Assembly (NCBI GenBank): GCA_038063455.1 | Contig: JBBTVB010000002.1 | Coordinates: 65,296 to 129,295 of the forward strand | Direction of reading: 5' to 3' | Origin: Patescibacteria group bacterium | GTDB lineage: Bacteria > Patescibacteriota > Patescibacteriia > PEXW01 | DNA: 64,000 nucleotides | Shown here: piece by piece, positions 2,127 to 47,679 of the stretch | Layout of the letters: every line of letters starts with the position of its first letter | Numbering within the stretch: the stretch's first letter is position 1 | Notes under the pieces: generated by a model | Told to the model about the DNA's origin: nothing | Seen by the model: the letters and a program-made list of their open reading frames with translations, nothing else | The model's database searches: none | Program-made: the position numbers and the translations under genes

Positions 2127-2321
2127 ATGACGTTACCTACTGGTTTGGAGGCAATGGGAGCCGGTGCGGTGCTCATGGGTTTTGCCCTGGCGCGCCCACA
2201 CCGGCATGTTCGTCGGCGTCGCCATATCCTGGCGCCGATCGGGTTGCTCATTGAGCTCCTGTTTTTCTACGGTGGTGTTTCCCTCGCGTTGTTTGGTTTG
2301 ATGGGCCTCTACGGCCAATAG
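2127..2321 (+). CDS. small two-TM protein (64 aa from first ATG of ORF 2013..2321)
   Basis: in-frame ATG; two hydrophobic helices separated by an RHRHVRRRRH loop; own promoter and terminator. Confidence 0.35.
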   Translation: MTLPTGLEAMGAGAVLMGFALARPHRHVRRRRHILAPIGLLIELLFFYGGVSLALFGLMGLYGQ

Positions 2322-2695: not shown

Positions 2696-2705
2696 TTGGA
2701 TTAGT

Positions 2706-2867
2706 CACCCGTTCGATTCCCCCAATCCGGGGCCCCCACGAAGTTGGCGCGCAACGCAGTGAGCACGACTTCGTGGGGTTAAGCGAGGCTTCGCATCGAG
2801 AGCGGAGCTTTTACCGGTCACGGCAAAACGCAGCTCGACGTGCGAAACGAGCTGGTAGCGCCAAGGG
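2706..2867 (-). repeat. tandem repeat copy 1 (162 nt; period 221 nt)
   Basis: 161/162 identical to 2927..3088 (only A2813 vs G3034); ends with the last 15 nt of tRNA-Glu (CCCTTGGCGCTACCA, minus strand). Confidence 0.95.
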
Positions 2868-2930
2868 CCTGCCTGCCGGCAGGCAGGGAATCGCCCCTGA
2901 CGGGGCCGGGGTGCTACGCATGCTCGCACC
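2853..2930 (-). pseudogene. tRNA-Glu remnant: 3' acceptor/CCA end retained, body replaced by three GC hairpins
   Basis: occupies the position of tRNA-Glu in the other repeat unit; keeps CCCTTGGCGCTACCA and a GGGAATCG-CCCC T-arm trace; 20-nt palindrome CCTGCCTGCCGGCAGGCAGG inserted at the acceptor/T-stem junction; no cloverleaf. Confidence 0.55.
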
Positions 2931-2933
2931 CGT
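2906..2933. repeat. G-first hairpin motif copy A (CCGGGGTGCT-N8-TCGCACCCGT)
   Basis: shares both arms with 17670..17698 and 18353..18380. Confidence 0.7.
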
Positions 2934-3088
2934 TCGATTCCCCCAATCCGGGGCCCCCACGAAGTTGGCGCGCAACGCAGTGAGCACGACTTCGTGGGGT
3001 TAAGCGAGGCTTCGCATCGAGAGCGGAGCTTTTGCCGGTCACGGCAAAACGCAGCTCGACGTGCGAAACGAGCTGGTAGCGCCAAGGG
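2927..3088 (-). repeat. tandem repeat copy 2 (162 nt), overlapping the 3' end of tRNA-Glu
   Basis: see copy 1; contains an 11-bp stem CCCCACGAAGT/ACTTCGTGGGG, TTTGCCG-GTCA-CGGCAAA, and a GTTCGATTCCCC segment that is an inverted copy of the tRNA-Glu T-arm. Confidence 0.95.
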
Positions 3089-3148
3089 GAATCGAACCCC
3101 TATTTCTTGGATGAGAACCAAGTGTCCTAACCGGTAGACGATGGCGCC
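3074..3148 (-). tRNA. tRNA-Glu (anticodon CUC), CCA encoded
   Basis: manual cloverleaf: GGCGCCA/TGGCGCT acceptor (G1-U72), GTCT/GGAC D-stem, CTTGG-TTCTCAT-CCAAG anticodon arm, AGGGG-TTCGATT-CCCCT T-arm, ACCA. Confidence 0.9.
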
Positions 3149-3243
3149 CTAATATCTAAAAACGTGCAAATATGAGCCTACCTAATTACTCCCTAAGTAT
3201 CAAGAGTTACAACTTCGCAGCTAATTTAACAATTTTTGCAGAA

Positions 3244-3486
3244 TTATGGCAACGCTCGGAGTGCCAATACGTAAACCAAAACAGACAAAACTTGTAAGGC
3301 AATAAAACTCATGATTGGTATCGTGACATTTAATACTGGTTCTAATGTATTAACAGAAGTGCGTTGGAGATTAATTTTAAGTACAAACAACGCTATAATG
3401 CTTAAAGGGTAAAGGGGGTACTGAAAAAAATTAATAATATTTTCAGCGATACTCTGTGAATCGCTACATCCAAGGCTGGCGTACAC
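3244..3486 (-). CDS. hypothetical membrane protein fragment (80 aa), in frame with 3541..3882 across one TAA
   Basis: AT-rich ORF; hydrophobic; the frame continues from the upstream ORF after a single stop. Confidence 0.3.
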   Translation of the reverse strand: MYASLGCSDSQSIAENIINFFQYPLYPLSIIALFVLKINLQRTSVNTLEPVLNVTIPIMSFIALQVLSVLVYVLALRALP

Positions 3487-3540
3487 AGGGTTGGCCCCAG
3501 TAATACTTGCAAAAAAATCAATTATGCTAAATGCACTAAC

Positions 3541-3882
3541 TTACGACTTACTCAATAGAAAAGGTAATACCATGATTATAATCGACATTCCTGCTAACCA
3601 ATAGACTATCGAAAGTACAGGAGACCACAAAATTTTGTACTTAGAAAAATACTCACGTAATTTTTTTCTTGGCCACAGAAGCCATAGAAGAATAAACCAT
3701 GCTACTGTTAGCATCAAAAAAAATACGCTTCCTGTCAAATAAGAAGGTGGGCAAGCAGTGGTATCGCCTACATTTTCAATAGTTAATCCGAAAACCTTAC
3801 TCGGAAACATTGTGACTCCTAATATGCAAAAGGAACTTAAAATAATTGTCTTTTGAGCTAACAAGAAATATTTATTAGTCAT
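3541..3882 (-). CDS. hypothetical membrane protein (113 aa)
   Basis: N-terminal signal/TM helix plus two further TM helices; AT-rich island next to tRNA-Glu. Confidence 0.45.
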   Translation of the reverse strand: MTNKYFLLAQKTIILSSFCILGVTMFPSKVFGLTIENVGDTTACPPSYLTGSVFFLMLTVAWFILLWLLWPRKKLREYFSKYKILWSPVLSIVYWLAGMSIIIMVLPFLLSKS

Positions 3883-3898
3883 ACAAATTTGTATTTTG

Positions 3899-4888
3899 TT
3901 ACAACTTCGCGGCCAGCTCTACCAGCCGGTTGGAATAGCCCCACTCGTTGTCGTACCACGCCAGTACGCGGACCAGGTTGCCGTTCACTTGGGTGGAGAG
4001 CCCATCCACAATGGCCGAGTGCGGATTGTCCACGATGTCTGACGATACTAAAGGTTCCATGGAAAATTCCATGATGTTCTTCAGCTTGGACTCTGCAGCT
4101 TTCTTGAGCGCGGCGTTTACTTCGGCGGCGTCGCGTGGCGCGCGCTTGGCAACGAACACAAAGTCGGTAATCGACCCGCAGGGCGTGGGCACGCGCAGGC
4201 TAATCCCCTGCATGCGGTCTTTTAACGTAGGCACGGTTTGAGCCGCGGCCTTGGTGGCGCCGGTGGTGGTGGGGATAATATTAAGCGCAGCCGATCGGGC
4301 GCGGCGCAAGTCTTTGTGCGGTAAATCGAGGATGCGCTGGTCGTTAGTATAGGAATGGATGGTATTCATCATGCCCCGTTCAATCCCGAACGTTTGCTCC
4401 ATAACCAATGCCACGGGCGAGAGGGAATTCGTGGTGCAGGAAGCATTGGAAATAACCTTGGGCTTGGTTTTGAGCACGTGGTCGTTCACGCCCAGCACCA
4501 CGGTTGCATCTGGGTCGTCGGCCGGGGCGGAAATAATGACTTGTTTAGCGCCAGCTTGCAGGTGCAGCGCCGCCTGGTCCCGCTTGGTAAACACGCCTGT
4601 GCATTCCAGCACCACATCAACTTTGAGTTTTGCCCATGGCAACTTGGTGGGATCTTTTTCCGCAAACACCTGCATGCTGTGCTTGCCAACAGTAATCGTC
4701 TGGCCTTTTACCTTCACGTCCTCAGCCAGCACACCATGCACCGAATCGTACTTCAACAGGTGCGCGTTAGTCGCCGCGTCAGTAAGGTCGTTTACCGCCA
4801 CAAAGGTTAATTTTGCATTGCGCAGGCCGGCACGAACCGCCATGCGGCCAATGCGACCAAAACCGTTAATTGCTACGCGGGTAGGCAT
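3899..4888 (-). CDS. gap: glyceraldehyde-3-phosphate dehydrogenase, type I
   Basis: INGFGRIGR NAD motif, SNASCTTN active-site motif, WYDNEWGYS C-terminus. Confidence 0.97.
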   Translation of the reverse strand: MPTRVAINGFGRIGRMAVRAGLRNAKLTFVAVNDLTDAATNAHLLKYDSVHGVLAEDVKVKGQTITVGKHSMQVFAEKDPTKLPWAKLKVDVVLECTGVFTKRDQAALHLQAGAKQVIISAPADDPDATVVLGVNDHVLKTKPKVISNASCTTNSLSPVALVMEQTFGIERGMMNTIHSYTNDQRILDLPHKDLRRARSAALNIIPTTTGATKAAAQTVPTLKDRMQGISLRVPTPCGSITDFVFVAKRAPRDAAEVNAALKKAAESKLKNIMEFSMEPLVSSDIVDNPHSAIVDGLSTQVNGNLVRVLAWYDNEWGYSNRLVELAAKL

Positions 4889-17547: not shown

Positions 17548-17623
17548 TGGTGGGTCCGCTGGGAATCGAACCCAGAACCTTGGGCTTAAAAGGCCCCTGC
17601 TCTACCAATTGAGCTACGAACCC
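17548..17623 (-). tRNA. tRNA-Lys (anticodon UUU), CCA encoded
   Basis: manual cloverleaf: GGGTTCG/CGGACCC acceptor, GCTC-AATTGGTA-GAGC D-arm, loop CTTTTAA, CTGGG-TTCGATT-CCCAG T-arm. Confidence 0.92.
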
Positions 17624-17659
17624 AGAATTATCCTCTACTTCTTAAATAAACCTTACCTA

Positions 17660-17728
17660 CCCTGCTCTTCCGGGGTGCTCCCGATGGGTCGCACCCGTCC
17701 CTATGGGACCCAATTGAGCTACGAACCC
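17660..17728 (-). pseudogene. 5' fragment of tRNA-Lys (nt 1 to about 30) with a 41-nt hairpin insertion in the D-loop
   Basis: 19 nt identical to the tRNA-Lys 5' end (GGGTTCGTAGCTCAATTGG), then the insert, then GAGCAGGG; no anticodon or T arm. Confidence 0.7.
17670..17698. repeat. G-first hairpin motif copy B (CCGGGGTGCTCCCGATGGGTCGCACCCGT)
   Basis: 27/28 identical to 18353..18380; nested stems GGGTGC/GCACCC and CCC/GGG. Confidence 0.85.
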
Positions 17729-42598: not shown

Positions 42599-42778
42599 AT
42601 GGCCCGAACCTGCACCATCTGTGGACGCGGCAGCCTGAAAGGCAACCAGCGCAGCCACTCTAAAATCGCTACCATCAAACGGCAGCACGTCAACATTCAA
42701 ACCGTCTTCAAGGGCGGCGTGCGGGTTGATGCGTGCACGTCCTGCATCCGCACCGTAGCGCACCAAGCCAGTAAGTAG
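42599..42778 (+). CDS. rpmB: 50S ribosomal protein L28 (59 aa)
   Basis: MARTCTICGRGSLKGNQRSHSKIATIKRQHVNIQ...CTSCIR; internal ATG of track ORF 42323..42778. Confidence 0.9.
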   Translation: MARTCTICGRGSLKGNQRSHSKIATIKRQHVNIQTVFKGGVRVDACTSCIRTVAHQASK

Positions 42779-47420: not shown

Positions 47421-47450
47421 TATAGGTGCAAGATTCTCATCTCGCTGGGT

Positions 47451-47523
47451 CGGGGTATAGCGCAGTTGGTAGCGCGCTTGCATGGGGTGCAAGAGGCCGC
47501 CGGTTCAAGTCCGGCTACCCCGA
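47451..47523 (+). tRNA. tRNA-Pro (anticodon GGG); CCA not encoded (ACCC)
   Basis: manual cloverleaf: CGGGGTA/TACCCCG, GCGC-AGTTGGTA-GCGC, CTTGC-ATGGGGT-GCAAG, GCCGG-TTCAAGT-CCGGC; embedded in an 18-bp leader/trailer helix (47440-47457 with 47516-47533). Confidence 0.9.
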
Positions 47524-47550
47524 CCCAGCGAGAGGCAGTGTTCAAGCCTG

Positions 47551-47582
47551 CCCCGCACCCGAGCGTAGTGAGTGGTGCGGGG
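47551..47582. repeat. hairpin H2 CCCCGCACC-N14-GGTGCGGGG between the T-arm and 3' acceptor strand of the outer copy
   Basis: perfect 9-bp stem; its loop is 9/14 identical to the reverse complement of the H1 loop. Confidence 0.9.
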
Positions 47583-47679
47583 GTCCCGCCACCCCGACCC
47601 AGACATGGAAGGCAATGCCAAAAAAATTACACGACTGCTTGTCGCTTACAGGATAAATACTCTACAGTAGGAACAGCCT

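Follow-up and report, generated by a model that had tools for sequence, protein, structure and literature searches.

What is the sequence that follows a tRNA-Glu(CUC) gene of a Patescibacteria group bacterium almost twice over, the first copy starting directly behind the CCA end of the tRNA? The question is raised by a 64-kb stretch of contig JBBTVB010000002.1 (assembly GCA_038063455.1), called the window below. The original prediction for this locus described a 221-bp tandem in which one unit carries the tRNA and the other a hairpin-filled remnant of it, and considered the repeated sequence to be either a structured RNA of the tRNA trailer or the scar of a tRNA-targeting element. How tRNA 3' ends are finished in bacteria with an encoded CCA and few RNases is poorly understood, and Patescibacteria have a strongly reduced RNA-processing machinery. 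Here we report that the repeated trailer, designated R, very probably represents a real, selected family of RNA structures, and that copies of it adjoin the encoded CCA of many different tRNAs in related genomes. R appears to be a cis RNA element of the tRNA trailer belonging to a family new to description. We put at roughly 45% the probability that its role is the maturation or protection of the tRNA 3' end in cis.

The R family and its fold

The region was read on both strands, and its layout is given 5' to 3' on the minus strand, where the order is tRNA-Glu(CUC), R, a 59-nt segment designated X, R, an 18-nt stub corresponding to a truncated start of X, and a terminator (Table 1). A repeat search confirmed that two 162-nt segments (2706-2867 and 2927-3088; spacing 221 nt, 99% identical) differ at one base, an A at 2813 and a G at 3034. 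Each segment consists of the last 15 nt of the tRNA or of its copy in X, then the R core, then the 18 nt with which X starts; the tRNA-Glu(CUC) foreseen in the second unit is called by both ARAGORN and Rfam. The GC content is 0.65 over 2706-3088 versus 0.535 in the window as a whole, and the minus strand of 2700-3076 folds with -188.7 kcal/mol (z = -4.66 relative to shuffled sequences).

Metagenomes were scanned with a pattern made of the positions that are invariant in four lineages. The scan returned 35 loci, several of them from one contig; 31 were genuine and four were chance matches in coding DNA (contigs and loci of relatives used for comparison are given L-numbers below). R is about 124 nt long in the window and 125-150 nt across the family, and its matches lie 3' of many different tRNAs located by ARAGORN, on the same strand. 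It begins one nucleotide after the encoded CCA (...NCCA/GCUCGUUUCG). Twenty-four of the 54 tRNAs in the related loci, representing 19 anticodons and 12 amino acids, carry R exactly at the CCA and always on the same strand, and in another 18 it lies no more than 400 nt downstream, in many cases preceded by an X-type module with the CCA of that tRNA at its own end. The element had been taken as local to tRNA-Glu; in relatives the trailer is instead a multicopy family adjoining the CCA end of at least 19 tRNA species.

A covariance model of the family, R1, detected only the two known copies in the window (116 bits each, E ~1e-27) and 46 copies, scoring up to 150 bits, in 40 related loci (265 kb), so that the search of related genomes suggested with the original prediction does find homologues. 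Nothing above 16 bits was obtained from 80 unrelated genomes (885 kb), and a weak match in the window at 42726-42772 (13.7 bits) falls at the end of a coding open reading frame (ORF) and is attributed to chance. Rfam 15 at gathering thresholds recognized three tRNAs in the window and no R family; permissive Rfam scans of the window locus and of L100 gave nothing on R, viral contigs scanned with the X and R patterns gave no matches, and we found no description of the R motif in the literature. The family is thus apparently new to description.

The structure was derived from an alignment of 33 R copies (A3) made with MAFFT and not fitted to any structure. RNAalifold placed 29 pairs on it, 15 of them with compensatory changes. 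Paired cells amount to 97.2%, versus 84.0 ± 0.7% in shuffled alignments, none of 500 of which reached the observed value, while cells changed on both sides number 113 against an expected 27.5; in slid controls 35-55% of cells are paired. The stems pointed out in the original prediction are all present and covary in relatives, and its view of a structured trailer RNA transcribed in the sense of the tRNA is backed by the fold, the covariation and the invariant pairs described below.

In the consensus, A76 of the tRNA and the first two nucleotides of R (G+1 and C+2) are paired with the G-C-U of an invariant AGCCUCGCUU (A76:U, G+1:C, C+2:G), forming helix P1. Domain 1 continues with an internal loop (UC/CUC), a 9-bp helix that includes an invariant U·G pair, and an apical part that varies. 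Domain 2 reads CCCC-A-(6-7 variable bp)-C-GUGC...GCGC-CA-(variable)-U-GGGG and holds a second invariant U·G pair; R ends in an ACCC(C) tail. Both U·G pairs are present in 33 of 33 copies. In the proximal copy of the window, G+1 lies at 3073 directly after the CCA, domain 1 is a long irregular hairpin with its apical stem at 3030-3049, the junction AGCCUCGCUU occupies 3002-3011, and domain 2 is a hairpin with arms at 2989-2999 and 2955-2965 followed by the tail GCCCC.

The single-nucleotide polymorphism (SNP) between the two copies had been read as a mismatch repaired to a pair. On the minus, RNA-sense strand it is a G-C versus a G·U pair, with no mismatch in either copy, and this SNP together with the invariant U·G pairs points to the strand in tRNA sense as the functional one. 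Several unpaired positions outside the search pattern are also invariant, namely the UC at columns 6-7 beside the junction and the UNC/UNC loops in domain 1; invariant unpaired bases are typical of RNAs with tertiary or protein contacts. R copies of 130-155 nt display no multiple-of-three bias in length and no codon periodicity, and from the lack of a length bias it follows that R is not coding. A complementarity between the domain 2 loop GCGCCA and the acceptor 3' strand of tRNA-Glu is a coincidence: tRNAs whose acceptor stems are unrelated are followed by this loop sequence as well.

R is also retained at the tRNA-Glu locus itself. Syntenic contigs were found via two anchors, a lineage-specific 293-aa protein and a conserved 64-aa membrane protein (window 2127-2321). 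A full R is present at this locus in six sampled lineages (the window, L084, L087, L091, L099 and L102), with a partial copy in L126, and R is kept in L083 as well as in L091; the neighbouring proteins of the lineages that retain R at tRNA-Glu are only 45-62% identical. A GAPDH search of genome contigs found only relatives at no more than 59% identity. In L084 the order is tRNA-Glu, a 44-nt spacer, a 71-nt X, an R-like trailer and a terminator, and its R is 70% identical to that of the window. The same order occurs in L087, L088 and L089, where the tRNA-Glu/X/R block as a whole has, with respect to the flanking 64-aa and GAPDH genes, the opposite orientation to that in the window, L084 and L091.

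The 11-bp stem of domain 2, noted in the original prediction and found again by the inverted-repeat search as CCCCACGAAGT/ACTTCGTGGGG, changes its sequence between lineages while pairing is kept (CCCCACCGACG/CGTCGGCGGGG, CTCACGAATG/CATTCGTGAG and CCCCAAACATT/AATGTTTGGGG), and RNAalifold on the sequences of four lineages gives 16 compensatory pairs. The first ~75 nt of R, that is domain 1, are identical between L084 and L087, though their domain 2 stems differ at most positions. A similar mosaic pattern is seen among R copies at different tRNAs in sample Ga0172379 and suggests recombination or conversion between copies.

The X module and the surroundings of the tRNA-Glu gene

The 59-nt segment between the two R copies was originally described as a hairpin-filled remnant of the tRNA. 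It turned out to be the best-conserved part of the locus, with a core identical at 40 of 41 positions in L084, and it recurs beside other tRNAs. Such identity next to a trailer that is only 70% identical argues against decay; judged by its sequence, X is therefore a conserved recurring module and not a decayed tRNA. Its design comprises, in order, 10-12 nt that are the reverse complement of G53-C64 of the local tRNA, a first hairpin (HP1, GGGUGC...GCACCC), a second hairpin (HP2, GGCCCC...GGGGC), and an exact direct copy of the last 21 nt of the local tRNA (C56-A76). This design was observed at tRNA-Glu (window, L084 and L087), Gly-CCC (L093), Gln (L118), His (L122) and Ala-UGC (L104); at Gly-GCC (L097) the copied 3' end is only 20 nt long, and an inverted copy of at least 7 nt is missing. 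Positions of the individual parts in the window are given in Table 1.

Table 1. Parts of the tRNA-Glu locus, in minus-strand order
Feature	Position	Strand	Basis
tRNA-Glu(CUC), encoded CCA	3074-3148	-	ARAGORN; Rfam RF00005, 61.4 bits (threshold 29)
Last 21 nt of tRNA-Glu (C56-A76), source of the copy in X	3074-3094	-	Coordinates
R copy 1 (proximal, G variant at 3034)	2950-3073	-	Covariance model R1, match 2947-3076, 116.3 bits, E 2.7e-27
6-nt linker GGAUUG between R copy 1 and X	2944-2949	-	Sequence
X segment a, GGGGAATCGAAC	2932-2943	-	Inverted-repeat search; same design at other tRNAs
X hairpin HP1, GGGUGC-GAGCAUGCGUA-GCACCC	2909-2931	-	Kept in L084, L087, L093 and L104 with compensatory changes
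X hairpin HP2, GGCCCC-GUCA-GGGGC	2893-2907	-	Comparison with relatives' modules
20-nt palindromic insertion, window-specific	2866-2885 (perfect palindrome 2868-2887)	-	Missing from X of L084 and L087
X segment b, direct copy of tRNA-Glu C56-A76 (CGAUUCCC...CUUGGCGCUACCA)	2853-2892	-	Suffix comparison
R copy 2 (distal; A at 2813 giving G·U in apical stem 2809-2828)	2729-2852	-	Covariance model R1, match 2726-2855, 116.3 bits, E 2.8e-27
a', truncated start of a further X (GGGGGAAUCGAACGGGUG), end of 162-nt repeat	2706-2723	-	Repeat search
Bidirectional terminator-like hairpin, shared with convergent DUF1059 gene (2447-2644, +)	2658-2686	both	Inverted-repeat and terminator scans

The 12-nt inverted copy of the T-arm that had been predicted is indeed present (GGGGAATCGAAC/GTTCGATTCCCC). 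It forms segment a, which is the reverse complement of the T-loop and the T-stem 3' strand of the tRNA (G53-C64) and is able to pair with GATTCCCC in segment b. An alignment of six X modules has 94.6% of its cells paired and seven pairs with compensatory changes, three of them in the a:b helix, and this helix tracks the identity of the adjacent tRNA. Segment b ends in CCA, with the distal R copy immediately next to it, and is split in the window by the palindromic insertion. The perfect 20-nt palindrome and its insertion into the copied tRNA 3' end stand as originally described. Its site, placed before exactly at the acceptor/T-stem junction, does not: comparison with relatives shows that the insertion breaks the copy after C63, inside the T-stem 3' strand and 1-2 nt from that junction. 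The suffix common to segment b and the tRNA is accordingly 21 nt in L084 and L087 and only 15 contiguous nt in the window, because the palindromic insertion interrupts the copy.

No tRNA was called by ARAGORN or Rfam on X of the window (2853-2943) or on X of L084 and L087. The tRNA-derived sequence of X is confined to the last 21 nt, direct, and the 12 nt, inverted, and homology to a tRNA body is lacking. X is not the 3' half of a split tRNA either; its leader is complementary to the T-arm of the tRNA itself and not to a separate 5' half, and an intact tRNA-Glu adjoins it. Owing to the variability of HP2, no metagenome match was obtained with a 21-mer taken from X. The 21-nt direct repeat resembles the duplication made at attachment (att) sites of the T-loop class, but the interior is tiny, the repeat is derived from the target, and there is no integrase; between the tRNA 3'-end repeats lie only 95-205 nt of non-coding hairpins, plus one R copy in the window, and no sizeable element. 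As regards MITE- or REP-type repeats, R lacks terminal inverted repeats, the inverted pair flanking X comes from the local tRNA, not from an element, and multicopy, mosaic behaviour is observed. It is possible that the reading of the locus as the scar of a tRNA-targeting element applies to X. Behind R, an equivalent of a' is found in L087 (GGAACCGAACGGGTGCGA) and in degenerate versions in L084 and L091.

Related structures were seen beside other tRNAs. Hairpins of the same types interrupt the D-, anticodon- and T-loops of tRNA-like copies, truncated at the 5' end, that stand before R in L107 and L112. These copies (L112 1301-1561 and L107 14056-14172) are tRNA-Val-like, lie 3' of an intact tRNA-Val, are followed by R and are not called by ARAGORN; the insert is in the D-loop in both, and in the anticodon loop and T-loop also in L112, and the L107 copy has no matching 5' acceptor strand. 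The window itself contains a 5' pseudo-copy of tRNA-Lys at 17651-17728 (minus strand), just upstream of the gene (17548-17623), with its first 19 nt identical to the gene. Its D-loop holds two GC hairpins, GTCCCATAGGGAC and GGGTGCGACCCATCGGGAGCACCC; the second of these recurs unchanged in L107 and resembles a hairpin of L118. The 3' part of the D-stem comes next and then truncation, an arrangement that mirrors the tRNA-Glu case.

A hairpin-filled 3' pseudo-copy of tRNA-Pro lies at 47528-47600 (plus strand), just 3' of the gene (47450-47527) and with no R next to it. It contains two hairpins, one resembling a T-arm (GGCAG-TGTTCAAGC-CTGCC) and the other a further GC hairpin, and ends in ACCCCGACCCA, a repeat of the 3' end of the tRNA; the gene itself ends in ...GA-CCCA rather than in a plain CCA. 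Further recurrent hairpin modules stand before R in L097, L106, L110 and L114, after tRNA-Ser, -Cys and -Ala (GCCTTCGC...GCGAAGGC and TGTCCTCC...GGAGGACA), and the same spacers carry a 7-bp hairpin followed by ACCA or GCCA, in the manner of an acceptor-stem microhelix, and another repeat, ...GAGGAGTGGTTCAGGGCAGC, was seen as well. It appears that small structured repeats of several families surround tRNAs in the genomes of these four loci.

The bidirectional terminator predicted downstream of the repeat is present (Table 1). Neighbouring genes are ordinary and encode DUF1059, GAPDH, a class II aldolase, triose-phosphate isomerase and an S11 peptidase; one protein of the neighbourhood matches, at 100% identity, a protein from a metagenome-assembled genome of a Patescibacteria group bacterium. 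The DUF1059 gene with its terminator (2447-2644 and 2328-2351) is an insertion relative to L083, L084 and L091, in which the terminator of the 64-aa membrane-protein gene adjoins the end of R directly. On the other side, an AT-rich island (3150-3900, GC 0.32-0.40) with small minus-strand ORFs at 3244-3486 and 3541-3882 separates tRNA-Glu from the GAPDH gene; it is missing in L087 and L102, where R adjoins the GAPDH stop codon directly. Stop-free ORFs span tRNA, X and R both in L087, L088 and L089 (438-947) and in the window (2705-3121, minus strand, 138 aa), and in L087 and L089 a 169-aa gene has been annotated across all three. Such ORF calls are almost certainly spurious, a product of GC-rich structured RNA; a database look-up of the 138-aa ORF returned no record.

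Possible roles of R and competing explanations

The position and fold of R suggest a way in which it might serve the tRNA. R would fold with A76 and G+1 at the base of domain 1, thereby sequestering A76, and an endonucleolytic cut exactly at CCA/G would set the tRNA free with its CCA intact. An RNase recognizing the conserved fold could make this cut. Recognition of the RNase P type is attractive because it would leave a 3'-OH, because R starts with a G+1:C pair and its domain 2 helix is followed by ACCC, and because nearby spacer modules consist of hairpins followed by ACCA. Self-cleavage would be the less likely route, leaving a cyclic phosphate, and from the comparison with known ribozymes we consider a self-cleaving R improbable.

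Several observations weigh against a role of R in tRNA maturation or protection. The cut at CCA/G is proposed from position alone, R matches no known ribozyme model, and since a strict sequence pattern selected the loci, conservation at the pattern positions is inflated. Twelve of the 54 tRNAs in related loci have no R, and the covariance model finds none at the tRNA-Lys and tRNA-Pro of the window; R is thus no general requirement. For six R copies no tRNA was detected in the 400 nt upstream, although two of these are cut by contig ends and one follows a degenerate tRNA-Gln 3' end, and some copies lack domain 1 altogether (e.g., L097 9807-9880). Finally, identical domain 1 sequences are combined with different domain 2 stems at different tRNAs, and such mosaic copies imply frequent conversion or mobility, as expected of a selfish repeat.

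This last point leads to the main rival, which we regard as rather unlikely: R and the X hairpin cassettes may be interspersed selfish repeats (MITE-, REP/BOX- or retro-type) for which tRNA 3' ends serve as sites of insertion or as a path of spread, with a structure that serves their own propagation rather than the tRNA and with the 221-bp tandem as a by-product of recombination between copies. Besides the multiple R copies within contigs and their mosaic make-up, such elements would account for the presence of R after tRNA-Lys or tRNA-Pro in L117, L103, L105 and L107 and its absence at tRNA-Lys(UUU) and tRNA-Pro(GGG) of the window, although the anticodons differ. They would also account for the similar GC-rich hairpins in the D-, anticodon- and T-loops of truncated tRNA-like copies (L107, L112 and window 17651-17728), for the 21-nt direct and inverted target copies of X, which resemble an insertion footprint, and for the 20-nt perfect palindrome as a lineage-specific insertion. 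However, the 24 junctions all fall at the same nucleotide after CCA and always in tRNA orientation, and R has been kept beside tRNA-Glu in divergent lineages. One would expect old selfish copies to have decayed, whereas there is a large excess of compensatory changes and nearly all copies keep the full fold. Moreover, the copies examined have no terminal inverted repeats, no conserved left end and no adjoining transposase, integrase or reverse transcriptase, and the viral contigs were without matches.

If R does act at the tRNA end, it might constitute a new class of catalytic or RNase-guiding RNA that makes the mature CCA end of cellular tRNAs, a proposal that we consider improbable. Such an RNA would either self-cleave at CCA/G or present the junction to RNase P, and a single enzyme would then complete both ends of the tRNA in these reduced genomes. 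In a bolder variant, R could spread by being joined to tRNA 3' ends and then copied back into DNA; this would explain both the identical junction at ~20 tRNAs and the X modules that carry copies of tRNA 3' ends.

Alternatively, X and perhaps R may be released after processing as trans-acting small RNAs, with X, which has an acceptor strand with CCA and an anti-T-arm, serving as a mimic or binder of the cognate tRNA or as a decoy for enzymes or toxins that read tRNA 3' ends. We hold this to be improbable. The X core is nearly invariant between distant relatives while its flanks diverge, and at five tRNA species segments a and b vary in step with the tRNA beside them, but this match may reflect no more than the origin of the module at the DNA level. 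The tRNA and X are set apart in L084, L087, L093, L104 and L118 by a spacer whose hairpin and T-rich run hint, by eye, at a separate transcript; the terminator that seems plausible there is not called by the terminator scan, and neither terminator nor promoter scans call these spacers. In addition, a second assembly of the same population has no X at all.

That assembly, L001 (GCA_964364675.1), was found, as a 418-kb contig, by an exact match to the DUF1059 protein and raises the question of whether the window has two units or one. It is identical to the window over 6.8 kb save the single SNP, and yet carries one unit (terminator, stub, R and tRNA), so that the difference between the two public assemblies of this population is exactly 221 bp. 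Contigs of relatives stop within the locus (L083, L084, L090, L091 and L127), which indicates that it is hard to assemble; the break points lie in the T-loop, at ACC/A, inside X and inside R, and are consistent with repeat-induced assembly breaks. It is more likely that the two-copy version is correct, or that the population is mixed, because X is real sequence, relatives have X at the same place, and skipping a repeated loop is the usual short-read collapse. The opposite case, in which the two-copy layout is an assembly artefact, the genome truly has one unit and the X reads come from elsewhere, is very unlikely despite the 100% identity of L001 on both flanks and the difficulty of the locus, given that an assembler cannot invent the X that L084 and L087 have between tRNA-Glu and R, that X of the window differs from theirs (palindrome, another HP2) and is bordered on both sides by the window's own R sequence, that the loss of a 221-bp loop with 162 nt repeated makes the one-unit version the likelier artefact, and that two or more R copies per locus are a common finding in the family (L092, L097, L098, L100 and L110).

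We infer that the 221-bp period arose by recent unequal recombination between modules. Unequal homologous recombination or gene conversion (a with a', b with b, or R with R) could turn tRNA-spacer-X-R-a' into tRNA-R-X-R, and the same process could delete back to tRNA-R-a', the state of L001, for which assembly collapse would be the alternative. The recent duplication or gene conversion that was originally suggested agrees with the identity of 161 of 162 nt, from which it follows that the last such event was recent. R followed by a truncated X start in L087 and, degenerate, in L084 and L091 indicates that X-R-X arrangements are old.

Other identities for R were considered and rejected. It does not look like an intrinsic terminator, as it ends in GGGG-ACCCC followed by A-rich or mixed sequence, and the scan of the region calls only the hairpin at 2658-2686. 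A two-piece (permuted) transfer-messenger RNA, suggested by a CCA tail upstream of an acceptor-5'-strand-like GCGCCA in the loop of R, is contradicted by the same loop following unrelated acceptors, by the absence of an ARAGORN call for such an RNA and by the lack of room for a tag frame; the acceptor strand is of the tRNA-Glu type with G at position 70, not of the alanine type (G3:U70), and the terminator comes ~40-60 nt after R. A fold like that of the hepatitis delta virus (HDV) ribozyme has no complementary P1 3' strand, as checked by hand, and no Rfam model match, and by eye the conserved loop bases do not fit hairpin- or hammerhead-type loops at the junction. TIGR arrays (PMC12045711) are no better match, in that the variable arms of domain 2 are complementary to each other and are not independent guides, and R copies are dispersed and not arrayed.

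Conserved, covarying and placed exactly at the CCA, R offers a concrete, testable candidate for a new mechanism of 3'-end maturation in cellular genomes. If it is a selfish element instead, it would be an unusually precise tRNA-end-targeting repeat for bacteria. On the practical side, short-read assemblies break at these modules, which are also annotated as hypothetical proteins (169 aa in L087 and L089; 138 aa in the window), and a covariance model of the R family would improve the annotation of these genomes.

Comparison with known systems

Bacterial interspersed repeats such as REP/BIME, BOX, Correia and the Rickettsia palindromic elements are multicopy, GC-rich, hairpin-forming, modular and mosaic, and are transcribed within neighbouring genes. 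R and X are likewise multicopy, GC-rich, hairpin-forming and mosaic; unlike those repeats, R has a fixed CCA junction and orientation, unpaired bases that do not vary, and strong compensatory variation across copies. Archaea have mobile tRNA introns and split tRNA genes (PMC10714607). The present loci share with them small structured inserts at D-, anticodon- and T-loops and tRNA fragments encoded apart. However, the loci described here are bacterial, a 5' acceptor strand appears to be missing from the interrupted copies, which lie beside an intact gene of the same tRNA, and no bulge-helix-bulge or complementary trans-joining leader was found, the X leader being complementary to its own T-arm.

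Integrases that target the T-loop typically duplicate the tRNA 3' block from T-loop to CCA, and integrase-less remnants of such events are CIME-like. X resembles these tRNA-gene att sites in ending with an exact 21-nt repeat of the tRNA 3' end (C56 to CCA), but differs in having 95-205 nt between the repeats, no integrase and an extra inverted copy of the T-arm. Because the same two-hairpin cassette occurs at no fewer than five tRNA species, each time matching the local tRNA, the repeat is derived from the target and not carried by the element.

The 4.5S RNA precursor is a non-tRNA substrate of RNase P in which a hairpin is followed by ACCC. R is similar in that the long hairpin of its domain 2, with CCCC/GGGG as closing helix, precedes A-CCC(C), that spacer modules are hairpins with ACCA, and that G+1 is paired to C. 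Unlike in the precursor, the ACCC tail of R follows domain 2 and not the helix that holds the CCA/G junction.

The only comparable case is that of theta ribozymes, which are confined to phages. They are minimal HDV-like ribozymes lying directly 3' of tRNAs of gut phages, with a proposed function in trailer processing in cis, and only 4.5% of the tRNAs associated with them encode CCA (PMC10879173). R, too, lies directly downstream of tRNA genes on the same strand, and theta ribozymes are thus a precedent for R as an RNA of tRNA-trailer processing. Unlike them, R measures 125-150 nt and has two independent hairpin domains and no nested double pseudoknot, and models of HDV-like and other ribozymes, at E up to 10, matched neither the window region nor three R copies of L100. 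Furthermore, R occurs in cellular genomes of Patescibacteria, with none in the phage contigs scanned, and it adjoins an encoded CCA. In placement, therefore, R resembles theta ribozymes, whereas in fold, host and CCA context it differs from them.

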